A stretch of DNA of 32,000 nt. It comes from Endobacterium cereale (GTDB taxonomy: Bacteria; Pseudomonadota; Alphaproteobacteria; Rhizobiales; Rhizobiaceae). A program made the translations under genes and the position numbers. A model generated the notes under the pieces. The model did no database searches, was not told the DNA's origin, and saw nothing but the letters and a program-made list of their open reading frames with translations. This document shows, one piece after another, positions 12,169 through 27,308 of this stretch. The stretch's first letter is position 1. Each line of letters opens with the position of its first letter. The DNA lies in NCBI RefSeq assembly GCF_009617585.1, contig NZ_WIXI01000038.1, positions 70,162 to 102,161 of the forward strand, written 5' to 3'.

Positions 12169-13203
12169 TCAGCTCCGATAAATCTGCTGGTTGTCGCGAT
12201 AGGCAGCGATGGCGCGTGGGAAAACGTCTACCCCCTGTCCCGCGCGGAACAGATCGGGATGGGCCACCATCGATTTCAGTCGCGTGCCATCGGCAAGATC
12301 AAGATCGACCAGACCGTGCGAACCATAGTCGGTCACACGGTGCACACTTGCCTTTGGAGTGTCCGACGCAGTGACATCCAGTGATTCCGGACGGATGGCA
12401 AGCGTGGCTGGGCCGTCAGGCACCTGCAACTGGACTGTAAGGTCGGAGCGCATGAAATATCCATTACGGACTTCTCCATCGATCAGGTTCATGCTGCCGA
12501 TAAAACCGGCAACAAATGGCGTTTTCGGATCGCGATAAACCACATCGGGACGGTCGATCTGTTCCGTCTTACCGTTTGCCATGACGACGATACGGTCAGC
12601 CATGGAAAGGGCTTCGTCCTGACCGTGGGTGACGAACAGGGTGGTGATGCCGAGACGCTGCTGGATGTCGCGCACCTCTTCCCGAAGGCGCTCGCGCAAA
12701 TGCTGGTCGAGGCTGGCAAAGGGTTCGTCAAGAAGCAGGATCTTGGGCTCCAACACCAGAGAACGAGCAAGCGCCACACGCTGCTGCTGGCCACCGGACA
12801 ACTGCGTGGTCATGCGATCCCCATAACCGGCGAGACCAACCAGATCGAGCACGGCCTCGACCTTATCCCTGATCTCAGCCGCCGGCATCCGCCGTAGTTT
12901 TAGACCGAAAGCAAGATTCTTGAAAACGTTCATGTGGGTCCAGAGCGCATGGCTCTGAAACACCATGCCCGTCGGACGACGCTCGGGGGGCAGATGGGTT
13001 ACATCTTCGCCATCAATGGTGATGGACCCGCTGGTCGGCTGCTCGAAACCGCCAACCATGCGCAACAGAGTGGATTTTCCGGAACCGGAAGGCCCAAGAA
13101 GGCAGACAAGTTCACCATCTGCAACATCAAGCGAAAAACTGTCGACAGCCTTGGCGCCAGCCGAAAAGGTCTTGGTGACCTCAGCGATATGAAGAACGGA
13201 CAT
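12169..13203 (-). CDS. ABC transporter ATP-binding protein (PotA/UgpC-like, with C-terminal TOBE-like domain)
   Basis: Walker A GPSGSGKST, signature LSGGQQQR and Walker B LLLDEP are present. I place the start at MSVLHIAEV (ATG, complement of 13201-13203). The ORF-track extension to 13398 overlaps the permease gene and looks non-coding. Confidence 0.85.
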   Translation of the reverse strand: MSVLHIAEVTKTFSAGAKAVDSFSLDVADGELVCLLGPSGSGKSTLLRMVGGFEQPTSGSITIDGEDVTHLPPERRPTGMVFQSHALWTHMNVFKNLAFGLKLRRMPAAEIRDKVEAVLDLVGLAGYGDRMTTQLSGGQQQRVALARSLVLEPKILLLDEPFASLDQHLRERLREEVRDIQQRLGITTLFVTHGQDEALSMADRIVVMANGKTEQIDRPDVVYRDPKTPFVAGFIGSMNLIDGEVRNGYFMRSDLTVQLQVPDGPATLAIRPESLDVTASDTPKASVHRVTDYGSHGLVDLDLADGTRLKSMVAHPDLFRAGQGVDVFPRAIAAYRDNQQIYRS

Positions 13204-13211
13204 GATGTTTC

Positions 13212-14036
13212 CTAACCGCCGAAACCGCGAGCAAAAGCTCCGCCGCCGATGACACGGCGGGCGAACATGAGGGCAATAAACGAGGGCACCCAGAGAAGGA
13301 CGGATAATACGGCCCCGAACTGGATGACCATCTGGTTGTTGATGAAACTGATCATCAGCACCGGCATCGTGCGAATACCGGGAGCCCCGATAAGCCATGC
13401 TCCCTCTGTCTCATAGAATGTCCCGACAAAACTCAGCAGTACGGCAGCAGCAATTGTCGGCCCTGCCTGCGGCAGGGTAACAGACCAGAACACACGAAAC
13501 GGACCGGCTCCGACATCGCGGGCGGCCTCCTCCATGCGTCGATCGACGGACTGAAAAGCCGCGACCGGAATCCAGATCATGAACATCAATGTGCCGACCA
13601 ACTGAATCAGAACGACGCCCCAGAAGGTTCCGATAAGATCGAGTTGCAGGAAGATGGCGGCGATCGCCACCAGGAGCCCGAACTTCGGAAAGGCATGACC
13701 GGCAAGAAATGAGAAGAACAGAATGTTGCGGCCCGGAAAATTCATCCGGGCAAATGCATAGGCAGCAGGAAGGCAGATCAGGGCCGACAGTAAAGTCACG
13801 ACCGTCGTCAATTGCAGACTCAGCATCAACGCATTCCAGACATCGGCACGACCGAGCGTTTGCGCCCAAAACCGAAAGCCGAATTGCTGCGGAATGACGT
13901 TCGGATAACGCCACACTTCGGTGAAAGCCCAGGTGCCGACGACAAGCAAAGGCCCGACGATGGCAATCGTCAGAAGCCCGGCAAAGAAGATACCCAGCCA
14001 ATCGATGCGACCACGCGCAGTCGTCATTGTACTCAT
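13212..14036 (-). CDS. ABC transporter permease
   Basis: Multi-pass hydrophobic protein with an EAA-like loop (EEAARDVGAGPFRVFWSVTLP). The start is chosen at MSTMTT (ATG at 14036), preceded by GGGAGAAA. The longer ORF-track start at 14072 would overlap the previous gene by 35 nt. Confidence 0.8.
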   Translation of the reverse strand: MSTMTTARGRIDWLGIFFAGLLTIAIVGPLLVVGTWAFTEVWRYPNVIPQQFGFRFWAQTLGRADVWNALMLSLQLTTVVTLLSALICLPAAYAFARMNFPGRNILFFSFLAGHAFPKFGLLVAIAAIFLQLDLIGTFWGVVLIQLVGTLMFMIWIPVAAFQSVDRRMEEAARDVGAGPFRVFWSVTLPQAGPTIAAAVLLSFVGTFYETEGAWLIGAPGIRTMPVLMISFINNQMVIQFGAVLSVLLWVPSFIALMFARRVIGGGAFARGFGG

Positions 14037-14037
14037 T

Positions 14038-14922
14038 CTATTTCTCCCGACTGCGCGCGACCGAACGCACATAAAACAGCCCGAACACGATACAGAAGCC
14101 GAAGGCGATCACGGCCTGCGTCATCGCTCCGACCGGGTCCTGCACCTCACGTAAAGTGCGCTGCATGAAGGGACCAAGCATTTCAGGCGAGGCCGGACCA
14201 AGCAGATAAGGCAATGTAAAGGAGGAGAAGATGCCAAGGACCGAAAAAGAAAGCGCCACAAGGATGGAGTTGGATATCCGCGGCAGGATGATGTGCCAAA
14301 ACACCTGCACGGCGTTGGCGCCCACGTCGCGCGCAGCTTCTATGGACTGGTTGGCGACGCTGCCAAGACCCGCAAGCAGGATCAGAACCGTCAAGGGAAT
14401 ATTATCCCAGACAAGGCCGATAACCGGCCCCCAAGGCGTCAGGTAGGGCGTGCGGATTTTCGGCAGATCCACAGCGTTGAAAAGAATATCCACCATGCCG
14501 TTCGGGCCGAGCACCCGGATGAAGGCGAATGCAAGGATAATCGAGGGCACGAACATCGGGAAAATCGCAAGCGCCTGCACATAAGCTGCCAATCGACCGC
14601 GGGAGAAACGCAAATACAGCGCTATCGGCAGGCAAATCATCAATAGCAGGATGGCGCAGACCAGGGTCGTCCACAGCGTTATGGACAAATTATCGAGACT
14701 ATAGCTGTCGGAAAAAAAGAAAGCATAACTCGACAGGTCGAAGCCCATCTCGCCGCTTTTATCCTTACGCCAGACGGTGCGGCTGATTGCATTGATGGCC
14801 GGCCAGATCACCAGCCAGATCACCAGGAAAACAGGAATGGCGACAAACAGGAGACCGATGGGCCTCCTGCTTTCTGCTGTGTCTACGAGCGGACGAACCG
14901 CCTGTTTAGTCGCCTCACTCAC
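14038..14922 (-). CDS. ABC transporter permease
   Basis: Hydrophobic protein with an EAA-like loop (IEAARDVGANAVQVFWHIILP). The most plausible start is the GTG at 14922, which overlaps the binding-protein TGA (GTGA). The exact start is uncertain. Confidence 0.75.
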   Translation of the reverse strand: MSEATKQAVRPLVDTAESRRPIGLLFVAIPVFLVIWLVIWPAINAISRTVWRKDKSGEMGFDLSSYAFFFSDSYSLDNLSITLWTTLVCAILLLMICLPIALYLRFSRGRLAAYVQALAIFPMFVPSIILAFAFIRVLGPNGMVDILFNAVDLPKIRTPYLTPWGPVIGLVWDNIPLTVLILLAGLGSVANQSIEAARDVGANAVQVFWHIILPRISNSILVALSFSVLGIFSSFTLPYLLGPASPEMLGPFMQRTLREVQDPVGAMTQAVIAFGFCIVFGLFYVRSVARSREK

Positions 14923-16070
14923 GACTTGCGATCGATGCTCGGCGCAACGTTGCGATACCAGCCATCGTTGATGGCGGCTTCCCACTTTCCGCCGGGAAAG
15001 GTCGGAATCGATTGGGGAATGATGTCGGCGAATTTTTCACGCAGTTCAGGAGAGATGTGACCCCAAGACACACCCGGGAACCCGCCGAGTTCCGTCAGAA
15101 TGGCTCCCTGCATTTCTTCCGAGAGAATAAAATCGGCCAGCTTGAGGGCTGCATCACGATTTGCGCCATTATCCAGCACAACTGCCCGCGAAAAATTGCC
15201 GCAAAGCGCCAGATCCTGCAATTGCACCAATCCGGTTTCCGCCGGCAGCACTCCCTGATCGATTGCCTGCAGCACCTGGTCAGACCATACCGGGATCATC
15301 GTCACAACGCCTTGCGAGAGGAGTTGCACGGACTGGGTATTGCCGGAGGAATAAGCTCCCTTATCATAAAGCGACGGTGCGATATCGGCCAGCAGTTTCC
15401 AGGCCTTGCCGAGCGCCTCATCGCCGAATTCCTGAGTGTAGTTGCTGACGGTGAAAGCGTTCGGATCACGGCCATTCGCTTCATGGATAGCGCGACGAAC
15501 AAAATTTCCGCCGGAGCCACCCTTGTCGGGGCGATTGTAGACAAACTGACCTGGATTGGCCTTGATCCAGGCAACCAGATCGGCCCAGTTTTTCGGCACA
15601 TCGGCCGGCTTCAGCTTCGTTTTGTCATAAGCGAGCAGAACCTGACTGCCACGATAGGGAAGACTGTAATCGCTCTGGATCGCGAGCGGATTGACGCGGG
15701 CATAGTTGGACAGACCTGCCTTTGCCATATTCACGTAGATGCCAGCCTCAATGGCGCCTGCAGGCAACAACGGATCGGAATGCTCGAAATAGTCCGCTTG
15801 AGGATCAGTTCCGGTCTGCTTGGCAGCGATAGCACGCTCGGCAATTGCAATAATGCCGGCATTGTCGCCTGCATCAACAAGATTAAGCTTGATGCCGGCA
15901 TTGGCAGCCTCGAAAGCCGGCTTGACGGTATTGGCCCAGAAATCGAGCACATTGGTATCGGACCCCGTATACCAGTCAATCGTGCCCTTGGCAGCGAAGC
16001 TCATACGAGGCGCAATCATCATACCAGCGGCAGCGCCAGCGGCGGACATCACAAAGGTGCGGCGTTTCAT
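14919..16070 (-). CDS. ABC transporter periplasmic substrate-binding protein (Tat/Sec signal peptide)
   Basis: 383-aa ORF. N-terminal MKRRTFVMSAAGAAAGMMIAPRMSFA resembles a twin-arginine signal. It is the first gene of the minus-strand operon and is preceded by GGAGAC. Confidence 0.8.
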   Translation of the reverse strand: MKRRTFVMSAAGAAAGMMIAPRMSFAAKGTIDWYTGSDTNVLDFWANTVKPAFEAANAGIKLNLVDAGDNAGIIAIAERAIAAKQTGTDPQADYFEHSDPLLPAGAIEAGIYVNMAKAGLSNYARVNPLAIQSDYSLPYRGSQVLLAYDKTKLKPADVPKNWADLVAWIKANPGQFVYNRPDKGGSGGNFVRRAIHEANGRDPNAFTVSNYTQEFGDEALGKAWKLLADIAPSLYDKGAYSSGNTQSVQLLSQGVVTMIPVWSDQVLQAIDQGVLPAETGLVQLQDLALCGNFSRAVVLDNGANRDAALKLADFILSEEMQGAILTELGGFPGVSWGHISPELREKFADIIPQSIPTFPGGKWEAAINDGWYRNVAPSIDRKS

Positions 16071-16633: not shown

Positions 16634-16648
16634 ATGGCGGAGAGGGTG
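16634..16648. repeat. 15-bp direct repeat ATGGCGGAGAGGGTG (island-distal att site; a duplicated copy of the tRNA-Ser 3' end)
   Basis: Identical to 27218-27232. Flanking similarity continues imperfectly leftward (ggtaaATT-atggcgg versus ggtaa-atggcgg). Confidence 0.8.
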
Positions 16649-16788
16649 TCCGCTTGGATCACTTCCAAGAACTTCTGGTGAGTTTCAGTAACGCATTAAC
16701 CATAATGGATTTTTCTTTCGCCACTGACTAGACAGGCCTGGTGGGCTCCAGCACGTTCCAACTTGTATTTGTGGGTAGGAACGTGGGT

Positions 16789-18000
16789 ATGCGGTCGATT
16801 AATAAGCTCTCAGCTCAGCGCGTTATGAAGGAAGTGAAGCCAGGTCGGTATGGTGATGGCGGCGGTCTATGGCTGCAAGTTTCACAGTCAGGTACCAAAG
16901 CCTGGATCTTCCGTTTCATGAAAAACGGACGAGCGCGCCAAATGGGACTCGGGAGTACTGAAACATTTTCTTTAAAGGAAGCCCGTGAACGAGCGCGAGA
17001 CGCACGGAAATTGTTGTCTGATGGCTACGATCCCATTGAGAGCCGACAAGCCACAAAGAACGCAGAGGTATCCGATAAGCGTGGGATAACTTTCAACGAG
17101 GCAGCATCTAGATATATCAAGGCTCATAGCCCTGGCTGGCGTAACACGAAGCACGCGGCTCAATGGCAAAGTTCGCTAAGCACCTACGCAAACAAAACCA
17201 TAGGCGACGTGGACGTAGCGCAGATTGACACCTCCCACGTCGTCACTATCCTCGAACCGATTTGGACAACGAAAACAGAGACTGCTAGCAGGCTTCGTGG
17301 TCGTATTGAGAGTGTCCTTGATTGGGCCACCGCGCGAACGTTTCGAGAAGGCGAAAATCCTGCTCGTTGGCGTGGCCACCTTGATAAGCTCCTAGCTGCA
17401 CGCAACAAAGTTTCAAGGGTAAAGCATCACGGTGCGTTACCCTACGCCTCGGCACCGGAATTCTTCAGAAAACTAAGGGTGCTCGAACATCAATCCGCAC
17501 GCGCTCTCGAATTTACCATTCTTACCGCAGCGAGGACAGGGGAAGCGCTCGGCGCGCGGTGGACAGAGTTCGACCTAGAAGCTGGCATATGGGTGGTACC
17601 GGGCGAACGCATGAAGTCGGCTCGTAACCATAGGGTGCCGCTATCAAAACAGACGGTCGAAATGCTAGTCGCGCAACCTCGATTGGGAGACTACGTATTT
17701 GCGGGCGCGCGGAGAAATCAGCCACTCTCTAATATGGCTATGCTGCAGTTATTGCGTGGGATGCACGGGACAGAGGGCTTAACCGTTCACGGCTTCCGCT
17801 CGACATTTCGAGATTGGGCAGCCGAGACAACAAATTTTCCCCGCGACGTGGCCGAAGCTGCACTCGCGCACGTGATCGGGGACAAAACCGAGGCGGCGTA
17901 TCGACGAGGCGACGCTCTCCAGAAACGTCGGCACATGATGCAAGATTGGGCAAACTTTTGCAGTGAATCAGCTCCAGCAGGTTGTGACCAAAGTGTATAA
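16789..18000 (+). CDS. int: tyrosine-type site-specific integrase (P4-like, DUF4102-type N-terminal arm-binding domain)
   Basis: N-terminus GRYGDGGGLWLQVSQSGTKAWIFRF. Catalytic region LTAARTGEALGARW...HGFRSTFRDW...AAYRRGD carries the R...HxxR...Y residues. I prefer the ATG at 16789 over the GTG at 16741. Confidence 0.9.
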   Translation: MRSINKLSAQRVMKEVKPGRYGDGGGLWLQVSQSGTKAWIFRFMKNGRARQMGLGSTETFSLKEARERARDARKLLSDGYDPIESRQATKNAEVSDKRGITFNEAASRYIKAHSPGWRNTKHAAQWQSSLSTYANKTIGDVDVAQIDTSHVVTILEPIWTTKTETASRLRGRIESVLDWATARTFREGENPARWRGHLDKLLAARNKVSRVKHHGALPYASAPEFFRKLRVLEHQSARALEFTILTAARTGEALGARWTEFDLEAGIWVVPGERMKSARNHRVPLSKQTVEMLVAQPRLGDYVFAGARRNQPLSNMAMLQLLRGMHGTEGLTVHGFRSTFRDWAAETTNFPRDVAEAALAHVIGDKTEAAYRRGDALQKRRHMMQDWANFCSESAPAGCDQSV

Positions 18001-18271
18001 AGGCAGACGTTACGAGTCAGTGGACAACTTTCAGCCTGATCCTGGCAAGATCAGGAAGCGCGGTGCGCGCCCTCACCCAGACGAGACTATTATTGCGGAG
18101 GTAAAAAACCTTCAGGTCACGTTAAACGTCAGTAGGCATCACGCTATTATGGATATCGGCCGGAAAAAATTCGAAGGCGCATCAAACAAGGAAAACAAGC
18201 TCGAAGCCTTCAGAATTCGCATCGAACGAAAAATGACGAGAGCGAATAAGAAATATTTGTCGGCCGATTAA
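17963..18271 (+). CDS. hypothetical small basic protein (doubtful)
   Basis: ORF only. It has a GTG start overlapping the integrase 3' end by 38 nt and is Lys/Arg-rich. I recognised no motif. Confidence 0.25.
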   Translation: MNQLQQVVTKVYKGRRYESVDNFQPDPGKIRKRGARPHPDETIIAEVKNLQVTLNVSRHHAIMDIGRKKFEGASNKENKLEAFRIRIERKMTRANKKYLSAD

Positions 18272-18422
18272 ATAACTTACCTAGACAGACGATCCTCGAC
18301 TAACGGATCAACAAAAACCATGTCAAAACGGTGACAATTGACGGAATTACGACCGTAGTCACCGGCAATATTTCGTGGCTACCCTGGAACCGAATAAAAC
18401 TAATAGGCTCCAGGAGAATCCA

Positions 18423-18623
18423 ATGATTACAAATCACAGATTTTTACGTCTAAACCAAGTTAGAGAACTGACTGGGCTTCCCACTTCGACACTGTACGAC
18501 CTCATGCAAAAGAGCCGGTTCCCAAGGCCAATCAAGCTTAGTGCTCGTTCAGTTGCATGGCTGGCGTGCGATATTGAAGAGTGGCAAGAGCGCCTTATTC
18601 AGCAGGGGAGCAAGGCACTCTGA
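18423..18623 (+). CDS. alpA: AlpA-family transcriptional regulator / excisionase-like HTH protein
   Basis: MITNHRFLRLNQVRELTGLPTSTLYDLMQKSRFPRPIKLSARSVAWLACDIEEW matches the AlpA/prophage CP4-57 regulator pattern. AGGAGA lies upstream of the ATG at 18423. Confidence 0.8.
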   Translation: MITNHRFLRLNQVRELTGLPTSTLYDLMQKSRFPRPIKLSARSVAWLACDIEEWQERLIQQGSKAL

Positions 18624-19132
18624 TGCTGAGTTTCGATACTCTGATCGCCTCAGCGCATTCAATCCAGCCCGAGGCTTCGCATCTCTTCATTGGCTCCCAT
18701 TCCGTAGCCAACACCGTGACCAGGCTAGGACTGACGCGAGTCATCACTCCAGATACAAGCGACCCTATCTACCAAGCGGACCAGGCCTACTTCGCCGGGC
18801 GGCCAGGGCGTTGCACGCTAATCCGAAATGATACATGCCCAGCGACGGCGCGCACACACACTCGGAACCCTCCGCCACAACTGTGGGTACTAGTCATTGG
18901 GTTGACCCACAGCATCCACTTATCGATGCCAGTCTGGCGCGGAACGCCCTGCTTTCTCACTGAAACGCTTCAGCTCGGGGCTGATGAATGCCATGCGCCT
19001 GTATACGCCAAAGCGGCGGCGGACGTGGAAATCTCGTTGTTGTTAAAAAAGTGCATCGCGAACGAAGGTCGCGACTGGACTGATTGGAAAAACTACACCT
19101 GGAGCATTGAGAGAAGCGCATGGACAGGCTGA
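18623..19132 (+). CDS. hypothetical protein
   Basis: ORF with its ATG overlapping the alpA TGA (TGATG). I recognised no motif. Confidence 0.4.
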   Translation: MLSFDTLIASAHSIQPEASHLFIGSHSVANTVTRLGLTRVITPDTSDPIYQADQAYFAGRPGRCTLIRNDTCPATARTHTRNPPPQLWVLVIGLTHSIHLSMPVWRGTPCFLTETLQLGADECHAPVYAKAAADVEISLLLKKCIANEGRDWTDWKNYTWSIERSAWTG

Positions 19133-19953
19133 CCCGCACTTCAATGCTAGGGCTTGCGCAGATGTATTCAACACAGACAGCTCTCGTGTTCCCATGCGGT
19201 AATGGCGGCACCAACGTAAAGAGACCTCTGGTCGCAGGAGGCCACCTTAGCGCAACCAACGACATATACCGTGTTAACGCGCTGTGGAGCGCAGGTAACA
19301 GTGAGGCGTTAGTGGGACTGCCGTGCAGCGCAAACCATATCATTGTGGTTGATTGCGATCGGCACGGCGATGGCGATGGTGTTGACTGTATCGAGCGACT
19401 TTTTCAAATCAACAACTTCAACGCAATCCGGCATGTACCCGTCGTTGCAACGCCAAACGCAGGACGTCATTACTATTTTGAGTCGCCTCCCGATCACCAG
19501 CGTTTGAAGGGAAAACTAGGCCCGGCCATCGATATCAAGTTGAATGGGTATGTTATCGCACCAGGCTCCATAATGCGGGACGGGAGGGAGTACAGCCTTC
19601 TTAATGGAGTGCCGTCTGATTTAGCAGCGGCAATAAAGCACAGAGCCCTACCCCCGCTGCCGATTTGGCTGCACCAAATGATTACGGTTCAGGAAGCCAA
19701 TGCATCGTCAACTATGAGTGCGAACTACAATGTATACGCTCGCCTCAAAGGATTGGTCTGTAAAGTAGCCACCGCACCGGAGGGCGAGCGTAACGCGACT
19801 CTATTCTGGGCAGCTTGCCGAATGAGCGAGATGGTCGTCAAACGGGAGCTTCCCAGAGAGGACGCGATCGCGCTTCTGGACAAAGCTGGAGCGTATGCAG
19901 GTCTCTCGCAGAGAGACGTTGCTGCAACTATACGGAGCGGTTTCTCGCGATGA
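19120..19953 (+). CDS. bifunctional DNA primase/polymerase (Prim-Pol, AEP superfamily) domain protein with PriCT-like C-terminus
   Basis: Acidic DxD motif IIVVDCDRHGDGDG, a NGYVIAPGS motif, and C-terminal ERNATLFWAACRM typical of primase C-terminal domains. The exact start (19120, or a downstream Met) is uncertain. Confidence 0.75.
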   Translation: MDRLTRTSMLGLAQMYSTQTALVFPCGNGGTNVKRPLVAGGHLSATNDIYRVNALWSAGNSEALVGLPCSANHIIVVDCDRHGDGDGVDCIERLFQINNFNAIRHVPVVATPNAGRHYYFESPPDHQRLKGKLGPAIDIKLNGYVIAPGSIMRDGREYSLLNGVPSDLAAAIKHRALPPLPIWLHQMITVQEANASSTMSANYNVYARLKGLVCKVATAPEGERNATLFWAACRMSEMVVKRELPREDAIALLDKAGAYAGLSQRDVAATIRSGFSR

Positions 19954-21443
19954 ACGATGCAGCATATTCATTTGTTCTCTCGCACGCGATGCCGGAGGAC
20001 AAAAAGCCTCTTTATCGACAAGTGCCTCCCGCCGCCCCATTTCCAGTGGATGCACTTGGCCCACTCGCGGCAGCTTGCAGTGCGATACAGGAGTTGACGC
20101 AAGCACCTGCGGCTTTGGTAGGACAATCGGTCCTCGCCGCTGCCACGTTAGCCGTACAAGCTCAGCGCGACGTGGACCTTCCAGGCGCAGGGCGCCGTCC
20201 TCTGACCGGCATCTTCATTACAATCGCAGAGAGTGGCGAGCGCAAAACATCCGTCGATAAACTTGCATTGCAAGGGGTTAGGGAAATCGAACGTCAATGG
20301 GCAGGGGATGCCGCGAGACAATGGGCAAACTACGTCAACGAGCGAAAAGCATGGGAAACAGTACGAAAATCCGCCGAAAAGAAACACGGTGATGACATGT
20401 CGGCGCTGACCACCGCACTAGCGGCGACAGGTCCAGAACCCGTCCCGCCTCCCCATCCTATGCTCATACTTGAAGACTTCACCTCTGAGGCATTGACAAT
20501 GCATCTAGCAGGCGCCCGTCCATTTGCCGGTATATTCTCTTCCGAAGGCGGCATTCTCGTCGGCGGAGCTGCCTTTACCGACGATAATAACATGAAGACC
20601 GGTGCATTGCTTAATCTGCTGTGGGATGGCGAACCGATACGGCGCACCAGGGTTGGCACCGGGCAAACATACCTTCCAGGCAGGAGATGCAGCGTTCATA
20701 TAATGCTGCAGCAAGTCGTTGCAGACAAACTATTCGGGGATCCAGTCCTCGAAGGGAATGGCCTAACCGCGCGGATGCTTACCGTCGCGCCGCAATCGAC
20801 AATAGGGACACGCTTTTTCCGCGAACATACTTCCAGTGCCGAAGGCGAGCTTCAACATTTTAACTCGCGCATAATGCAATTATTATCTCGCGACGTTACA
20901 AAGCATCCCGATACCGGAGCCCTTGAGCCTTCGACCATCTGGCTTAGTCAAGACGCTAAGACCGCCTACATTAGCTTTCATGACGTGTGCGAGCGAGAGA
21001 TAAGATCTGACGGTTCTCTTTCGGAGATCAGAGGTTTTGGCGCAAAACTTGCCGAACAAGCGGGGCGAATCGCAGCAATCTTGACGCTCTATCACGATCC
21101 CGACGCACACGAGGTTTCATTAACCGCGATGCAATGCGGAATTAATCTCGCTACATTTTATGCAAACGAAGCTCTCCGCATTCGGAACTCCTCCGCGATA
21201 TCCAACGATCTTCGCTTGGCCGCGGAATTGATCGAATGGTGGCGACGATTGCAGCGACAGCAGTTACATCTCGCTTTGGTTTATCAACATGGTCCAAAGA
21301 GGATTAGAGACGCTAAGACTGCGCGACGCATTCTTGGGGTGCTGATTGACAATGGGCAAATCACGCAGCTTACAGCTGGCTCTATCGTAGATGGCAAAGC
21401 TCGGAAAGAAGCGTATCAGCTAAACGTTGATCCTCGCGATTAG
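19950..21443 (+). CDS. DUF3987 (YfjI-like) protein, putative helicase/replication partner of Prim-Pol
   Basis: The start MNDAAYSF overlaps the upstream TGA (ATGA). N-terminal FPVDALGPLAAACSAIQELTQAPAALVGQSVLAAATLAVQ is the pattern I associate with DUF3987 proteins of P4-like islands. Confidence 0.7.
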   Translation: MNDAAYSFVLSHAMPEDKKPLYRQVPPAAPFPVDALGPLAAACSAIQELTQAPAALVGQSVLAAATLAVQAQRDVDLPGAGRRPLTGIFITIAESGERKTSVDKLALQGVREIERQWAGDAARQWANYVNERKAWETVRKSAEKKHGDDMSALTTALAATGPEPVPPPHPMLILEDFTSEALTMHLAGARPFAGIFSSEGGILVGGAAFTDDNNMKTGALLNLLWDGEPIRRTRVGTGQTYLPGRRCSVHIMLQQVVADKLFGDPVLEGNGLTARMLTVAPQSTIGTRFFREHTSSAEGELQHFNSRIMQLLSRDVTKHPDTGALEPSTIWLSQDAKTAYISFHDVCEREIRSDGSLSEIRGFGAKLAEQAGRIAAILTLYHDPDAHEVSLTAMQCGINLATFYANEALRIRNSSAISNDLRLAAELIEWWRRLQRQQLHLALVYQHGPKRIRDAKTARRILGVLIDNGQITQLTAGSIVDGKARKEAYQLNVDPRD

Positions 21444-21638
21444 CCTGGTTAGCCCTCTCCCTAGCATCCCGCGTCTATCTTCTACTTTTTTTTCTGGGTT
21501 CTCACGCGAGCTGCTAATCAGGCTAATCTAACAAAAGCGGACGTTCCATCCGCCAAAATCGCTTGATTCTAGTCACAAAACGTTGTCCCTGGAAATCGTA
21601 CCCACAAAATAACCCACATTAGAGACGTGTTAGGTGCC

Positions 21639-21983
21639 ATGATGCCCAGAAGTAGTCGTGCCAATATACCCGCACTGCAGCAAGCTAGCACGCGCATCGG
21701 TAATGAATCAGCGCTTCTCGACGGAGTAGACGGTAGAACGAACGGCGCCCGCCGCTTCAAAGAGATTTTCACGCGACTGTCAACCGAACTAACTCAACTA
21801 AAGCGCCGACAGACAACCGTGGAGTCACTAATTCTCATGCGCGCTTCGTTTCTCGTCATCTGGTGCGAGAAGCAAGAGGCAAAACTGGCGTCTGGTGAAG
21901 ACGTAGACGTAGGAGCATATGTCACGACTTCGAACACGCTTCGGAAACTTCTCGCGGACGTGGAATTGCTAAGGGAGAAGTAG
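21639..21983 (+). CDS. hypothetical protein
   Basis: ORF with good coding look (MMPRSSRANIPALQQ...DGRTNGARRFKEIF...). No confident family. The start could be the ATG at 21639 or the GTG at 21627. Confidence 0.45.
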   Translation: MMPRSSRANIPALQQASTRIGNESALLDGVDGRTNGARRFKEIFTRLSTELTQLKRRQTTVESLILMRASFLVIWCEKQEAKLASGEDVDVGAYVTTSNTLRKLLADVELLREK

Positions 21984-22108
21984 GTCGTAACCCGGCTAAG
22001 CATTGACGCCATCGGTGGAGACTTGACATTTGTTCTCCATTTGGCCTTCCCGAACTGCTCGCCATCTGTCAGACTGAGTCAAGTGCTTCGCATATTTGGG
22101 ATTGACTG

Positions 22109-23224
22109 ATGAATTACCGAATCGCTGACTTGTTTTGCGGTGCTGGCGGAATGACGCTCGGCTTCGTCGATAACCGATTCGGTGGCGGATTTGATTCGGT
22201 CTTCGCACTGGACAATGACAAATCCTCCGCAGCAACACACCGTACTAACTTCGGCGGTGAGTCGCTATGCGAAAACATTGAAACTTGGATTAGCGAGGCT
22301 GACGTTCCGAAAGTAGACGTCGTCGTCGGCGGACCGCCTTGTCAGGGATTTAGCTTACTTAACAAACGGCGTACCGGAGACGAGCGACGCGCTCTGTGGG
22401 AACCATATCTCCTGGCAGTGAAGGAAAGCGGTGCACGTATTTTCGTTATGGAGAACGTTGCTGAGCTTTACCGTTCACCTGAGCTGGATGACATCCGCGC
22501 TAGGGCAGAGTCGCTAGGCTTCAAAACGTCTGCATGGGTACTGAATACCGCTAATTACGGTGTCGCACAGACCCGAAAGCGCACTATCGTCATAGGTTGG
22601 GACAGCGTCAAAGTGCCAAATGGCGTTGGGATGCCTACTCAGACGCACCGCGATCCGTCTATTGTCGTCGCCTCTGACAGAAATCTTACACCCTGGCTAA
22701 CGGTCAAAGACGCATTCAAAGGATTGCCAGCAGACACAGTCGGGATAGACATCGGTGACGGCTCCCCGCTTGATCTTCACTTCGGCAGAAGTCCAACGAC
22801 GCTCAGCCAGAAACGCTACAGGGTCGTCCCACCCGGCGGCAACCGCTTCGATCTTCAACGAAACGCACCCGAACTAACACCCGATTGCTGGATACGTAAG
22901 ACATCAGGTGGCACAGACTTGTTTGGACGCCTCTGGTGGGATCGCCCCTCGGTGACAATTCGGACAGAGTTCTTCAAACCTGAAAAAGGCCGATATTTGC
23001 ACCCTGAAGAACATCGGCCGATAAGTCACCGCGAGGCAGCTCGATTGATGGGCTTTCCCGACGATTTTCGTTTTTCGGGTTCGAAAGTGGATATCGCAAG
23101 GCAGATCGGAAACGCAGTTCCACCTCCGTTCGCTGGGGCGATTGCTCGCTCAGTTAAAGAGGCGCTTGATGCAGTAAAGATGTTGGATAGCAAAATCGAT
23201 GGCGCGACGTCGGAAGCTGCATAG
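22109..23224 (+). CDS. dcm: DNA (cytosine-5)-methyltransferase
   Basis: All the canonical m5C MTase motifs appear in standard order: I DLFCGAGGMTLGF, IV GGPPCQGFS, VI ENV, VIII QTRKR, X GNAVPP. Confidence 0.92.
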   Translation: MNYRIADLFCGAGGMTLGFVDNRFGGGFDSVFALDNDKSSAATHRTNFGGESLCENIETWISEADVPKVDVVVGGPPCQGFSLLNKRRTGDERRALWEPYLLAVKESGARIFVMENVAELYRSPELDDIRARAESLGFKTSAWVLNTANYGVAQTRKRTIVIGWDSVKVPNGVGMPTQTHRDPSIVVASDRNLTPWLTVKDAFKGLPADTVGIDIGDGSPLDLHFGRSPTTLSQKRYRVVPPGGNRFDLQRNAPELTPDCWIRKTSGGTDLFGRLWWDRPSVTIRTEFFKPEKGRYLHPEEHRPISHREAARLMGFPDDFRFSGSKVDIARQIGNAVPPPFAGAIARSVKEALDAVKMLDSKIDGATSEAA

Positions 23225-24224
23225 CGAACCAGAGAAAGCTCTTGCCGAGCTTCAGACTCTTCTCGATGATTTCTCTAGCTGGCTATCAGACCCAGATCTA
23301 CGGGCAAAGGTTAGGGCTTTAATCCCAGCAATACACAAAATTCGCGAGGTTGGAGTAATCCTCCAAACTGGCGCCGCGCAGCTATCTGCGCGCATGCGAA
23401 TTCTCAACTACTTACAGGCTTATCCGTTGACCGTAATTGACGGCGATGAGCTGATGGTGGTCTCCGGCATTCAGGACTACCCGCGCCGAGTTCGTGAGCT
23501 TCGCGTACAGCTCGGTTGGCAAATCAGCAGTGGCGCCACATTCAAAGATATGGCGAACGATCTTTCCAGAACGGGGAATCTGGAAGATCTCGCCGCGATA
23601 GAAGCCGCTCTTGGACGAGATCCACTCACGTTAAGGACGGATCAATACGTTCTCCTATCGCTCGAGGAAGACAGAGAAGCAGCCCATAGATGGAACAACT
23701 TAAACGAGATTCGGCGAAGCAAGGCTTCGGTACAGGACAAACTGCTTCGATACATGCTGAAAAACATCGGCAGGCCTGTGTTAGGCGAAGAACTTCGCTA
23801 TCTCGCAGGTGACCGCAACGAATGGCCGAGACGGATGCGAGAATTGAGAACGGAAGGAGGTTGGTCGATAGCGACCAAGATGAGCGGACGTCCGGATCTG
23901 AATGTCGGGACTTACGTACTTGAAACTGGTGAACCAGCACCCGAGCACGATCGACATATCCCGGATGCTGTGCGGGTAGATGTGCTCATACGTGACAAAT
24001 ACCGTTGCCAGTGGCCCGAGTGTGGATGGGAACGCGGAATGGCCGCTCCGAATGACCCACGAAAACTGCTGGAGCTTCACCACGTCGTGCACCATCGCGA
24101 CAAGGGAACAAACACAACCGGCAACTTGATAACACTTTGCAATACGCACCACGACTTGGTTCACAAGGATCAGTCAGCGGCAAAGGTTGTTGAGACAATC
24201 TTAGCTGAAGCGCACGCGCGCTGA
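23199..24224 (+). CDS. HNH endonuclease, probable restriction partner of the m5C methyltransferase (two N-terminal wHTH-like repeats plus a C-terminal HNH)
   Basis: C-terminal CQWPECGW...LELHHVVHHRDKGTNTTGNLITLCNTHHDLVH is an HNH/beta-beta-alpha-Me motif. An internal duplication spans aa 65-110 and 180-225 (..YPRRVRELRVQLGWQI / ..WPRRMRELRTEGGWSI). It overlaps dcm by 26 nt. Confidence 0.8.
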   Translation: MARRRKLHSEPEKALAELQTLLDDFSSWLSDPDLRAKVRALIPAIHKIREVGVILQTGAAQLSARMRILNYLQAYPLTVIDGDELMVVSGIQDYPRRVRELRVQLGWQISSGATFKDMANDLSRTGNLEDLAAIEAALGRDPLTLRTDQYVLLSLEEDREAAHRWNNLNEIRRSKASVQDKLLRYMLKNIGRPVLGEELRYLAGDRNEWPRRMRELRTEGGWSIATKMSGRPDLNVGTYVLETGEPAPEHDRHIPDAVRVDVLIRDKYRCQWPECGWERGMAAPNDPRKLLELHHVVHHRDKGTNTTGNLITLCNTHHDLVHKDQSAAKVVETILAEAHAR

Positions 24225-24622
24225 CGCTCTAAAAACTGTTGCAGTCTGCAGATACTATCCGTTAGTTCGCATTCCCATATAATAAAAACGTGCCACCCTT
24301 GCCGCCTTAAAGATTCTTCATTGATTTGGTCGCGCTGCTTATTGCTATTGAGCTTGGCAATCCATTTCTCTTTATTCGATTTCGGAAGAGTGGTCCCTTT
24401 TCGGCAGTCGTGCCCGTGCCAGAAGCACCCGTGCACGAAGATCGCACACTTGAACTTCTTCAGAACAATGTCTGGTTTGCCCGGCAAATCTTTCGAGTGA
24501 ATGCGAAACCGGAATCCGCTTGCGAATAGGGCACGCCGAACCGCGATCTCCGGCCGAGTATTCTTCGCTTTGATCCTGGACATAAGCGCGGACCGATCCG
24601 CTATCGATAGTTTGTCTGCCAT
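24170..24622 (-). CDS. vsr: very short patch repair (Vsr) endonuclease
   Basis: MADKLSIADRSALMSRIKAKNTRPE...LPGKPDIVL...AIFVHGCFWHGHDC...IIWECEL parallels E. coli Vsr, including the catalytic Asp and His positions. Confidence 0.88.
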   Translation of the reverse strand: MADKLSIADRSALMSRIKAKNTRPEIAVRRALFASGFRFRIHSKDLPGKPDIVLKKFKCAIFVHGCFWHGHDCRKGTTLPKSNKEKWIAKLNSNKQRDQINEESLRRQGWHVFIIWECELTDSICRLQQFLERQRACASAKIVSTTFAAD

Positions 24623-25752
24623 CTCAGATATCGTCTCTGACTTCTGGCAATCGTCGGCTTGCTTGCAGAGACTGCCTCCTCATGGGTATCAGGTAACGGC
24701 GGATCGCTTGATACAGTTGCTGTAGCGGCCTCAAGTGCATAAATTATAGCGTTCTTTTTACCAGGCGCGTCGAGAAGCATTCCAAGTTCTGTCGCAGTTG
24801 TGAAATCAACGGACTCTTGTGGAACGCTGTCCAATTGAAGACTGCTTACACGTCGTTCGAGGCAGTAATTATCGCCACACAGGTAGATGGTGTCTCCTAC
24901 GGCGAACCGACCGAGCATCAAACCTATAGCGACACTCCCATTTTTCATGCTTTCGGACACCTTACCCCTTTCCGTGGCATGTTTGTAAGGCTTCAGCGTG
25001 AACAGACCAGCTAGCTGCACTCGTTCCGCCAGCGCCTCACATACTGCGCTGATAAAGTCACAGAACTCCAGATGGACGTTCAAATGAAGCAAGTCGCTTA
25101 TGTCGATCGTACCGTGGGCAGCGTCATTACGGAATTTGATCAGTTCGGCCATCTGACTTTCAGCCGTACCGGTTAGCCTGTCACCGGCAGCGAAAAACTC
25201 TTTGACTCTCCGATGGTTCTCGATCCACGATTGAACACCTTCGATACCGCAAGCATTCATAAATCGATTCAACTCAGGCAACCGCAAGTTTTGCTCCTGC
25301 ATGAGCATTGCTTTTGGTTCCAGTGAGTATTCAAGTCCTCCGAGAGCGCTGTTGTATGTGCCGATCAACTGCGAAAGATCGATGTCCGCGAAGCGCGCCC
25401 TATCCTTTTTGTCGAGTATTTTCGCGAGACCCTGCCTGTAGGAGGACTTAATTGCATCGGGTAGATCCATGAAAGGCATCCTCCCCTGCAACAGGCTTAA
25501 ATGCTCGCGTATCATTTCGTGCGCAAATTGCTCGTAGATAGCATAAATTCGCGTCACTGCTGCACAGTGATCTATTATCCTCCACTCTACGCTGGAAGGG
25601 GCATCAGCTGGAGCGATTACTTGAATGCTAGCGCCATTCGGCTTCTTCGGTGTCTCGTCGAGAACAAGCGTTCGAAGGTTGTCGGATGTCCGAATGTGCT
25701 TCGCAAGCGCGCCAATCGCCTCGTGCGTCCGGCTGAGGTAAGCGTTGTACAT
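24601..25752 (-). CDS. HEPN-motif protein (MAE_28990/MAE_18760-like HEPN nuclease candidate) with an unassigned C-terminal domain
   Basis: 383-aa ORF. An R-x4-H motif in LIKFRNDAAHG (R208...H213, nt 25114-25131) follows a predicted helical region. It starts 2 nt after the DUF262 stop, and its 3' end overlaps the vsr start by 22 nt. Confidence 0.6.
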   Translation of the reverse strand: MYNAYLSRTHEAIGALAKHIRTSDNLRTLVLDETPKKPNGASIQVIAPADAPSSVEWRIIDHCAAVTRIYAIYEQFAHEMIREHLSLLQGRMPFMDLPDAIKSSYRQGLAKILDKKDRARFADIDLSQLIGTYNSALGGLEYSLEPKAMLMQEQNLRLPELNRFMNACGIEGVQSWIENHRRVKEFFAAGDRLTGTAESQMAELIKFRNDAAHGTIDISDLLHLNVHLEFCDFISAVCEALAERVQLAGLFTLKPYKHATERGKVSESMKNGSVAIGLMLGRFAVGDTIYLCGDNYCLERRVSSLQLDSVPQESVDFTTATELGMLLDAPGKKNAIIYALEAATATVSSDPPLPDTHEEAVSASKPTIARSQRRYLRWQTNYR

Positions 25753-25754
25753 GC

Positions 25755-26939
25755 TTAGGCCAATATATCGCGCAGCATCGCCCGATAAAGGTCAATTCTG
25801 TCCTTTAAATCCTGCTTCGTGTTAGCGCGTCCGGTAAAAGCGCCATCTGGATGCCTTATGAAAAGGCGCTTTGTAGCCTTGAGAACGTCAGACTTACGTT
25901 CAACAAGTTGAGATCCGTAGCGCAAAACTTCTGACAGACCGATCATAACGGCATCTTGGAACGCGCGATGAGGTTTGGTATCCCACGCTTCACGCTCAGG
26001 AGAATACGGCCTGAAAATGCGTTGACCGTAAATGTCTAATGCAAGGCTAAGCGTCTTTTCGTAGAGCTCGGAAAGCTGCGCCACATCGCCACGAGAAAAC
26101 TTAGCCGCGCGCCTCATGTAGAGATCAAGAAACCCCTGCATTCCGTTACGATAGTGGTCCGCGTGCCGAAGCGCAAAGAACCTGAGAACTACCTCTGCGT
26201 CGCCCATTTTTGCGAAGAACGGATCAGAGACGAGTGTGGTATTTGCTTCAATTTCATTTTCGACCCAACGCGGCAAGCCCCACACGCTGCGGAACTCATC
26301 GGTACGAGTTATTTGATGGATCATATCGTTGAATTCGCCGCGATAAAGTGCGTTTCTGATTTCCTGCCTCTCCAGCTTGATCCCGCCGGTATTGAGACGA
26401 TCGAAAACAGTCTCGCGAAGAAGCGAGGCTTCCTCCTCGCTCCCAGTTGATTCCTTGAGTAGGACAATCGAAGTTATTGAGCGCCGGTCAATGCCTGCGC
26501 GAATCTTGTCAGGTAGGGTGCTATAATAGCGACCGTTAAGCTCGGGCCATGTTTCTAAGCCGCGGAGCTTTAAGGTATTGGCGTAAAAGTCACGAAGAGC
26601 GGTAATCCGCTGTTGACCATCCATTACCTCGTAAGAGTTGAAGTCACGTTCATAGAGAAATACTGGAGGAACCGGTATGTTCATCACAAACGATTCAATC
26701 AGCAAACTCTGCGTCCGGACGTCCCACCGCGGACGCCGTTGATAAAACGGGCGAAGATCCATGTAATCAGGATCCTTCAACTGATTAACAAACCCCGGCA
26801 GTTTCTCTCGGTTGGATTCGATTACGATGCGCCCTTCACCTCTGACGTAACGCTCGTTGATTGCCCTATCATCAGGGCGCTCGGAACGCTCAGCTGCGTC
26901 GTCCGTCCACATGGTTTGTTCATCTGGTGAAAAGGGCAT
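25755..26939 (-). CDS. DUF262 (ParB-like NTPase/nuclease, GmrS-type) domain protein lacking a DUF1524 nuclease domain
   Basis: 394-aa ORF with YEVMDGQQRITALRDFY (DGQQR at nt 26607-26621) and FDRLNTGGIKLERQEIRNA, both DUF262 signatures. I saw no H-x..H/HNH-like DUF1524 motif in the C-terminal half. RBS aaaggaa is present. Confidence 0.8.
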   Translation of the reverse strand: MPFSPDEQTMWTDDAAERSERPDDRAINERYVRGEGRIVIESNREKLPGFVNQLKDPDYMDLRPFYQRRPRWDVRTQSLLIESFVMNIPVPPVFLYERDFNSYEVMDGQQRITALRDFYANTLKLRGLETWPELNGRYYSTLPDKIRAGIDRRSITSIVLLKESTGSEEEASLLRETVFDRLNTGGIKLERQEIRNALYRGEFNDMIHQITRTDEFRSVWGLPRWVENEIEANTTLVSDPFFAKMGDAEVVLRFFALRHADHYRNGMQGFLDLYMRRAAKFSRGDVAQLSELYEKTLSLALDIYGQRIFRPYSPEREAWDTKPHRAFQDAVMIGLSEVLRYGSQLVERKSDVLKATKRLFIRHPDGAFTGRANTKQDLKDRIDLYRAMLRDILA

Positions 26940-27217
26940 TAGTTATTCCTTTTAGAGATCAGCGCTTCATGTATCACTGACCAGAACAAGATGTGCACAA
27001 ATGCGTCCGTGTCTGCAAGCACGCGCCCCCAACAAGCGGTCGCTAACTCCACGACCGCAGTTATCAAGACAAAATTACCGACTATAGCGACTTGAGGAAC
27101 AACCAGCGCGTAGTGAATTCATCACCAACCAGCCCGCATAACAATTGTGGGTAGGCTTGATGGTAACGCTTGCTCGAAACAATAAATATAAACTATTTCA
27201 GCATCTTGCAGCGGTAA

Positions 27218-27232
27218 ATGGCGGAGAGGGTG
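27218..27232. repeat. 15-bp direct repeat ATGGCGGAGAGGGTG (tRNA-proximal att site)
   Basis: Identical to 16634-16648. It covers 1 nt past the tRNA end, the CCA, the discriminator, the 3' acceptor strand and 3 nt of the T stem. Confidence 0.8.
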
Positions 27233-27308
27233 GGATTCGAACCCACGATACGGTTGCCCGTATGCCGCATTTCGAGTGCGGTGCTTTCGACCACTCAGCC
27301 ACCTCTCC
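27219..27308 (-). tRNA. tRNA-Ser (anticodon CGA), CCA encoded
   Basis: The reverse complement folds by hand. Acceptor GGAGAGG/CCTCTCC; anticodon stem CCGCA/TGCGG with loop CTCGAAA; long variable arm ATACGG-gcaa-CCGTAT; T arm GTGGG-TTCGAAT-CCCAC; discriminator G plus CCA. Total length 90 nt. Confidence 0.9.

Follow-up and report, generated by a model that had tools for sequence, protein, structure and literature searches.

Operons that join a ParB-like gene to a gene for a HEPN protein of the MAE_28990/RiboL-PSP type were catalogued in 2013 (Anantharaman et al., Biol Direct 8:15). In that survey, the partner of the HEPN protein was labelled a "ParB nuclease," DNA methylase genes were also placed in the operon, and HEPN RNases tied to DNA-targeting modules were proposed to provide a suicide or dormancy arm. 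The PD-T4-2 system of Escherichia coli ECOR65, described as "DUF262, HEPN," protects against phage T4, and its deletion sensitizes the native strain (Vassallo et al. 2022, PMC9519451). Its two open reading frames (ORFs) total 1,540 bp, and in the HHpred table of the same study component A matches PF03235, while component B, a single HEPN domain of about 165 aa, matches PF18735 (97.8%) and then PF18737 (96.9%). In the tables of a 2023 review, PD-T4-2 is listed under DUF262 as well as under PF18735 (PMC10952713). Here we examine a gene pair of this type in a 32,000-nucleotide stretch (the window) of Endobacterium cereale (contig NZ_WIXI01000038.1, positions 70,162 to 102,161), in which the upstream gene, P1, encodes a DUF262 protein and the downstream gene, P2, encodes a HEPN protein. 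We consider it probable that P1-P2 is a two-gene module against phages or other mobile elements, of the same DUF262(ParB-like)-HEPN class as PD-T4-2, carried as cargo of a tRNA-Ser island.

DUF262 and HEPN domains are also found in systems of other composition. In GmrSD, BrxU and SspE, DUF262 serves as the NTPase or sensor and the cleavage resides in DUF1524 (PMC10952713). NsnA, the sensor of Menshen, has a ParB-DUF262 plus ParBDB DNA-binding architecture (Li et al. 2025, PMC12065111). In DARNA, activation by a DNA-derived signal leads to cleavage of tRNA anticodon loops, and HEPN defense RNases commonly cut tRNA (DARNA preprint). The literature searched contains no work on the mechanism of PD-T4-2 or of the MAE_28990 family, and a 2024 preprint on "embedded defences" has no bearing on the pair. 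A sequence-only reading of the window had put the pair forward as a candidate undescribed system, and this part of it has to be given up: in addition to the 2013 catalogue and the 2022 validation of PD-T4-2, the P2 orthologues already have an NCBI name, "MAE_28990/MAE_18760 family HEPN-like nuclease."

Co-conservation of the gene pair

P1 (positions 25755-26939, minus strand, 394 aa) and P2 (24601-25752, minus strand, 383 aa) are separated by a spacer of only 2 nt, with the junction letters TAA-gc-ATG. The ORFs and the junction sequence thus bear out the sequence-only description of two co-directional minus-strand genes. In the databases, where the organism is listed as Rhizobiales bacterium RZME27, P1 is annotated as "DUF262 domain-containing" (100% identical) and P2 as "hypothetical/RiboL-PSP-HEPN domain-containing." The intergenic region between the tRNA-Ser gene and P1 (26940-27218, minus strand) is the presumed site of the operon promoter and has an AAGGA ribosome-binding site ahead of the ATG. 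Because a promoter scan of 26940-27218 returned no match to the sigma-70 consensus, the promoter is placed there only presumptively.

The pairing is strictly conserved. From an alignment of 19 diverse P2 homologues (A1), we drew 80 loci in reference genomes that span Alphaproteobacteria, Pseudomonas, Tatlockia, Psychroflexus, "Ca. Angelobacter," and many Cyanobacteria, including Microcystis. In 78 of the 80 loci, the gene directly upstream of the P2 homologue, on the same strand and mostly 0 to 6 nt away, encodes a P1 homologue; in the other two, the P2 gene begins less than 90 nt from the contig end, so that pairing is present in 78 of 78 testable loci. The converse also holds, as the gene that comes after the P1 orthologues of Bradyrhizobium and Hyphomonas (62-64% identity) is of the HEPN_MAE_28990/RiboL-PSP type. 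Moreover, the identities of the homologues to the P1 and P2 of the window correlate across loci (Pearson r = 0.90). The 80 loci share no conserved third gene: the most frequent neighbor cluster occurs in 12 of them, reflecting lineage synteny, and neither an ATPase nor a methylase is conserved with the pair (vsr and HNH homologues, 0 of 80; dcm, 2 of 80). An exhaustive profile search for the P2 family among clusters at 50% identity returned 1,655 cluster representatives with E ≤ 1e−3, 1,051 with E ≤ 1e−10 and 357 with E ≤ 1e−30, and nearly all of the best 150 matches have the full long P2 architecture. The P2 family comprises 89 clusters, all of about 340-385 aa. The suggestion that the two genes are kept as neighbors in unrelated genomes is therefore borne out in several phyla. 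This recurrence, together with the invariance of the motif residues in the homologues, exceeds chance, and in several phyla, as on phages, plasmids and islands, DUF262-HEPN forms an obligate unit of two genes.

P1 shows higher conservation than P2 at all 65 loci compared (median identity, 49% versus 32%), as expected if P2 is a fast-evolving effector. Antitoxins are usually less conserved than the toxins that they neutralize, which is the opposite of this pattern. The greater conservation of P1 therefore argues against a simple antitoxin role for this protein, and it bears on the first alternative that we considered, in which the pair is a toxin-antitoxin or addiction module, with P2 as the HEPN toxin and P1 as its protein antitoxin, that stabilizes the carrier island, plasmid or prophage rather than defending against phages. 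Such a module would fit the tight two-gene operon with its 2-nt spacer, the presence of the pair on a very small 8.2-kb plasmid, on conjugative plasmids and in prophages, and the VapBC genes that adjoin it in Bradyrhizobium; HEPN toxins with protein antitoxins are, in addition, well known (HepT/MNT, DARNA preprint). However, the partner of P2 is a DUF262 protein and not MNT, and P1 is large (394 aa), has an invariant NTPase motif and surpasses the putative toxin in conservation in every one of the 65 loci. The relative PD-T4-2 has a phage-defense phenotype, with the deletion sensitizing its native strain to T4. Toxin-antitoxin and abortive-infection roles are also not mutually exclusive. Overall, we regard such a module as unlikely.

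The two proteins and their relatives on plasmids and phages

P1 (25755-26939, minus strand), the putative DNA sensor or switch, matches the Pfam family GmrSD_N/DUF262 (PF03235, E = 1.6e−22) over aa 62-199 (26343-26756, minus strand), and this is the only family that it matches in Pfam. The nucleotide-binding and hydrolysis motif DGQQR (aa 107-111; 26607-26621, minus strand) is invariant in the P1-family alignment (A2) and is kept in 69 of 73 full-length homologues. The sequences YEVMDGQQRITAL and FDRLNTGG..ERQEIRNA both occur in the P1 translation, and the FRNDAAHG of the partner is likewise found in the P2 translation, so that all motifs quoted in the sequence-only reading are present. That reading had also held that P1 is a DUF262 protein without a DUF1524 or HNH-like C-terminal nuclease, and this agrees with our results, in which no DUF1524 or HNH family was matched in Pfam at E ≤ 1.

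The C-terminal domain of P1 (aa 200-394; 25758-26342, minus strand) is all-helical, with a high predicted local distance difference test score (pLDDT), in the AlphaFold2 (AF2) model. The PADLOC profile of NsnA matches P1 at 7.9e−60 (201 bits; profile positions 44-383 of 385), which is a higher score than that of the PD-T4-2_A profile (3.3e−31, 106.7 bits). Because the NsnA profile covers P1 end to end, P1 shares the ParB-DUF262 plus ParBDB architecture; aa 200-394 correspond to the NsnA "ParBDB" DNA-binding domain and are not a nuclease. The best structural matches of P1 are BrxU and ParB CTPases, all of them weak; no nuclease fold is among the structural matches, and there is no sign in them of a hidden nuclease. 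Sequence searches of the PDB with P1 and with P2 returned no match for either protein. Separately, we observed that a stretch at aa 25-60 of P1 (26763-26868), with the pattern RAINERYxRGEGRIVIExNREKLPxF, is almost invariant from Rhizobiales to Microcystis and is modeled with low AF2 confidence. This stretch might serve to bind a partner or DNA.

The nature of P1 bears on a second alternative, a two-pronged, restriction-like system in which P1 itself is a DNA-targeting ParB-fold nuclease or nickase and the HEPN RNase serves as a suicidal fallback, set free once DNA targeting has failed, by analogy with PrrC-EcoprrI. The "ParB nuclease" label of the 2013 survey points in this direction, as does the same logic that the survey applied to HEPN genes linked to restriction-modification (R-M) systems. 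A DNA methyltransferase gene lies directly upstream of the pair on a Tabrizicola plasmid, an R-M module adjoins the pair in the window, and the best structural match of P1, BrxU, is a restriction enzyme of the GmrSD family. Yet in GmrSD, BrxU and SspE it is DUF1524 that carries the cleavage (PMC10952713), and P1 is without this domain. Nor is any methylase conserved with the pair: dcm is found at 2 of the 80 loci, with no other recurrent neighbor. We therefore assign this alternative a low probability.

P2 (24601-25752, minus strand), the putative effector, belongs to the HEPN RNase family according to the Pfam profiles and the AF2 model. It exceeds the cutoffs of both HEPN_RiboL-PSP (PF18735, 36.4 bits; cutoff, 28.4) and HEPN_MAE_28990 (PF18737, 29.7 bits; cutoff, 26.8), and HEPN families are the only ones that it matches in Pfam and PADLOC. 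The helical core (about aa 54-256; 24985-25593, minus strand) covers the Pfam matches at aa 59-245 and the modeled helices from H54-91 to H224-256. Within it lies RNDAAHG (25111-25131, minus strand), the Rx4H catalytic motif of HEPN proteins with R208 and H213, which secures the earlier assignment of P2 as a HEPN protein with an R-x4-H motif. R208, N209, A211, H213 and G214 are invariant among the 19 sequences of A1, and the strict HEPN motif pattern is found in 60 of 71 P2 homologues.

The AF2 model of P2 (pLDDT, 86.4; predicted template modeling score, 0.81) is helical over aa 1-256, continues into a C-terminal β-barrel and ends in a disordered tail. The barrel (strands at aa 259-340; 24733-24978, minus strand) has a pLDDT of about 95 and is without Pfam coverage. 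Its Foldseek matches in the PDB include the C-terminal domain of U32 peptidases (4he6/4he5; E = 2e−4; target template modeling score, 0.73-0.77; root mean square deviation, 2.3 Å), as well as domain II of EF-Tu and of IF2/eIF5B and Pbp11. The viral structure library BFVD yielded the same barrel class. The barrel of P2 is thus confidently modeled as resembling domain II of translation factors (EF-Tu/IF2/eIF5B) and the U32 C-terminal domain. It is conserved in the P2 family (A1), and we found no description of it in the searchable literature. The tail (aa 347-383; 24604-24714, minus strand; pLDDT < 50) is not alignable across the family, and the ATG of the neighboring vsr gene, at 24622, falls inside it.

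Related pairs on plasmids and phages differ in the length of the HEPN partner. The 8.2-kb mobilizable MOBQ plasmid of Tabrizicola piscis (NZ_CP034332.1) encodes a DUF262 protein of 417 aa and a HEPN protein of 364 aa, the latter aligning with the P2 family at 98.2% in hhalign over 286 columns, barrel included. A temperate P2-like phage of Vibrio carries a similar pair beside its CI repressor gene (DUF262, 402 aa; HEPN, 355 aa; hhalign, 98.9%), and the barrel is conserved in this long form as well. The partners are shorter on a Salmonella IncX1 plasmid (DUF262, 365 aa; HEPN, 177 aa), on an E. coli IncF plasmid (353 aa; 211 aa) and in two Peduoviridae, Peduovirus P24B2 (381 aa; 239 aa) and a Klebsiella Reipivirus (407 aa; 220 aa). 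All four of these short partners exceed the Pfam cutoff of PF18735, of PF18737 or of both. In IMG/VR, a HEPN partner lies directly downstream in 10 of the 11 viral contigs with a full-length P1-family gene (L090-L100); these partners have 237-303 aa, match the P2-family hidden Markov model with E of 9e−17 to 2e−4, keep the RNxIAH motif and, being without a barrel, align solely to P2 profile positions 60-245. The A components of the plasmids and phages score 184-229 bits with the NsnA profile and 100-142 bits with PD-T4-2_A, as compared with 201 and 107 bits for P1. A tblastn search of P2 against plasmids and phages gave no match, the long-form homologues there being detectable by profile only.

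In two of these elements, we made further observations. On the Tabrizicola plasmid (locus L084, 746-5315), the methyltransferase, DUF262 and long HEPN genes fill more than half of the 8.2 kb. In Vibrio phage 10N.286.55.A5_PE003 (locus L087, 1728-4749), the DUF262 gene is automatically annotated as "RM_Type_II REase," and MazG-like and HNH genes follow the pair.

The long and short HEPN partners are bridged by the 237- to 303-aa proteins of IMG/VR and by the shared Pfam families. Given this spectrum, the pair of the window falls within a single broad DUF262-HEPN family. The effector is modular, consisting either of HEPN alone (177-303 aa) or of HEPN joined to a barrel like that of translation factors (about 350 aa). 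By sequence, P1-P2 is assigned to the long-effector branch, as are the Microcystis "MAE_28990/MAE_18760 family" proteins; the Microcystis orthologues are long forms of 359 aa with a DUF262 gene upstream, linked to MAE_28990 by this family name. The long form with a barrel seems to reside mostly on chromosomes, islands or plasmids, the Vibrio phage being an exception.

The island around the pair

The pair adjoins a tRNA-Ser(cga) gene (27219-27308, minus strand). A second copy of the 3′ end of this gene, CACCCTCTCCGCCA, stands at 16635-16650, immediately ahead of an integrase gene, where 0.01 matches would be expected by chance. Because of this direct repeat of 14 nt (16635-16650 and 27219-27234), we place the island at about 16.6-27.2 kb of the window (16635-27234; 10.6 kb), and its GC content is lower than that of the flanks. 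The tyrosine integrase gene (16741-18000) occupies the tRNA-distal end. Among the cargo are a Prim-Pol gene (19120-19953) and a DUF3987 gene (19815-21443), which together look like a P4- or satellite-like replication module. The tRNA-Ser gene, the integrase gene and the adjoining dcm, HNH and vsr genes agree with the earlier placement of the pair at the cargo end of a tRNA-integrated island, next to an R-M module.

The positions from 22109 to 24622 hold a compact 5-methylcytosine (m5C) R-M-like module. It consists of a dcm methylase gene (22109-23224, plus strand), a candidate HNH/winged helix-turn-helix endonuclease gene (23199-24224, plus strand), whose product weakly resembles IscB-type and phosphorothioate-dependent HNH domains, and vsr (24170-24622, minus strand), encoding a very-short-patch repair endonuclease (Pfam Vsr, 8.3e−34; TIGR00632, 4.1e−45). 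The genes overlap each other, with 26 nt shared between dcm and the HNH gene, 55 nt between vsr and the 3′ end of the convergent HNH gene, and 22 nt between vsr and the 3′ end of P2. As this last overlap places the start codon of vsr within the end of P2, vsr is probably co-transcribed with P1-P2 in the source genome.

This arrangement raises the question of whether P1-P2 is an accessory of the dcm/HNH/vsr module, in which case the five contiguous cargo genes would form one system specific to the island. The overlap of vsr with P2 and the probable co-transcription are compatible with such a system. The related loci are not: with vsr and HNH genes at none of the 80 loci and dcm at 2, and with the pair standing alone on phages and plasmids, vsr is outside the conserved unit. 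Comparative genomics largely refutes this alternative, which we regard as very improbable. Beyond the island, the AT skew is unusually high at 13001-15000 (0.34 and 0.25 per 1-kb window), over minus-strand ABC-transporter and solute-binding genes.

Proposed mechanism and comparison with known systems

The sequence-only reading had cast the pair as a split system, with DUF262 as the sensor and HEPN as an effector encoded in trans. With both domain assignments upheld, no nuclease in cis in P1, and strict co-conservation of the pair, this is the most reasonable reading of the locus. The roles of sensor and effector are inferred here, as are RNA as the target, a physical interaction between P1 and P2, and the trigger. 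Modified phage DNA, put forward in the sequence-only reading as a possible trigger, is a conjectural candidate. We propose that P1, with its ParB-fold NTPase domain (DGQQR) and helical DNA-binding domain, surveys DNA as a nucleotide-dependent switch and that it either keeps P2 inactive or activates it on meeting invader DNA. P2 would act as a HEPN ribonuclease through RNxAAHG; the active site of a HEPN enzyme is normally built from both subunits of a dimer. Because domain II of EF-Tu contacts the aminoacyl-acceptor end of tRNA and domain II of IF2/eIF5B contacts the small ribosomal subunit, we hypothesize that the EF-Tu-domain-II-like barrel docks the enzyme on tRNA or the ribosome. Cleavage of RNA would then halt translation and lead to growth arrest or abortive infection. 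Since the island itself carries an m5C methylase gene, methylation of this kind is an unlikely trigger of P1.

We further suggest, tentatively and with considerable doubt, that the long-effector subfamily, with at least 357 clusters at 50% identity and E ≤ 1e−30, is a mechanistically distinct branch, in which a ParB-like NTP switch detects invader DNA and directly licenses a HEPN RNase whose barrel docks on aminoacyl-tRNA or the ribosome. If this were true, the sensing of DNA would lead directly to cleavage of the translation machinery, and the ATPase transducer of Menshen would be dispensed with. Since PD-T4-2 is without a published mechanism in the literature searched, the barrel gives a testable hypothesis for the RNA target, and the intact DGQQR is a handle on the switch.

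Several observations weigh against a defense module of the PD-T4-2 class. Enrichment in defense islands is not evident among the 109 nearest neighbors from 29 genera, a crude Pfam sample without a baseline; this sample includes Uma2 (four genes), AAA_21 (two) and HerA (one), and the remainder is mostly housekeeping. In Microcystis, the pair sits in conserved synteny. The P1 model is moderate (pLDDT, 73.6) and its structural matches are weak. The hhalign comparison of the P2 family with the short enterobacterial HEPN partners is not significant, the local matches falling on helix 1 and the RNxxAHG motif. The long-effector subfamily is read from sequences and models, and the barrel, for which RNA or ribosome binding is pure conjecture, could bind P1 instead. 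The searched literature is silent on whether PD-T4-2 acts by abortive infection or direct immunity. Finally, the PADLOC profile PD-T4-2_B has no match to P2 or to 18 members of its family at E ≤ 10. That profile also misses the short HEPN partners on the plasmids and phages of Salmonella, E. coli and Klebsiella; because these are genuine partners, its failure to match P2 is uninformative on kinship. We accordingly dropped the miss as evidence against kinship and regard the profile as narrow. As it misses every B component tested, such loci go uncalled by PADLOC.

Some of these observations would also fit a housekeeping role in RNA processing or regulation, unrelated to conflict. In many cyanobacteria, the neighbors of the pair are ordinary metabolic and regulatory genes, and within Microcystis the synteny is accompanied by about 300 members in the 90% cluster. 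On the other hand, the distribution of the pair is patchy across distant phyla at high sequence similarity, it occurs on an integrated island, on plasmids and in prophages, its effector evolves fast, and PD-T4-2 provides a validated defense relative. A housekeeping role thus seems highly improbable to us.

In individual genomes, genes of other conflict systems lie close to the pair. A VapBC toxin-antitoxin pair directly precedes the DUF262-HEPN genes in Bradyrhizobium algeriense (locus L081, 5024-5625), and a Cas1 gene is less than 6 kb from the pair on a Hyphomonas contig (locus L083, 1-905). Their proximity hints at defense neighborhoods in some genomes.

Compared with Menshen (NsnABC), P1 matches the NsnA profile end to end, but the window has neither the NsnB ABC/AAA_15 ATPase with DUF3696 nor the inPIN effector NsnC. 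Downstream of P1 are the HEPN and vsr genes and upstream is the tRNA gene, and in place of inPIN there is a HEPN core plus barrel. With NsnB and NsnC absent beside P1, the signal would have to go straight from P1 to the effector. P1 shares DUF262 with an intact DGQQR with GmrSD, BrxU and SspE, and BrxU is its best, though weak, structural match. It differs from these enzymes in the lack of the DUF1524 His-Me nuclease and in its all-helical C-terminal half. With a HEPN protein of its own as the effector, the system probably targets RNA and not DNA. The RNases PrrC, RloC, ApeA and DARNA/PD-T7-3, which cut tRNA, resemble P2 in having an Rx4H HEPN effector in a phage-defense context. However, they belong to other HEPN clades with other partners and sensors, and they have neither an EF-Tu-domain-II-like barrel nor a DUF262 partner; we treat this likeness as a mechanistic analogy only.

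The closest comparisons are with the family of the 2013 survey and with PD-T4-2. The locus belongs to the surveyed family itself: P2 scores above the gathering cutoffs of the two Pfam models that came out of the survey, has the conserved Rx4-6H motif of the family (R208, N209 and H213 invariant) and shows the operonic link to ParB at 78 of 78 loci. The methylase of the catalogued operon has a counterpart in the methyltransferase of the Tabrizicola plasmid; in the window, dcm is on the opposite strand, and the association is not conserved in the 80 loci. The survey's table leaves a C-terminal barrel unmentioned for MAE_28990 (Anantharaman et al., Biol Direct 8:15). Like P1-P2, PD-T4-2 is a co-directional two-gene operon with DUF262 upstream of HEPN, and its components have the same domain signatures (A, PF03235; B, PF18735 and then PF18737), a comparison made at the level of domain signatures. 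P1 also matches the PD-T4-2_A profile about as well as do the A components of enterobacterial plasmids and phages. In contrast, P2 has 383 aa and adds an N-terminal helix and a C-terminal barrel, whereas PD-T4-2B and the phage-borne partners are without the barrel. The pair itself is therefore of a known, partly validated type, and the new detail is the EF-Tu-like barrel on its effector.

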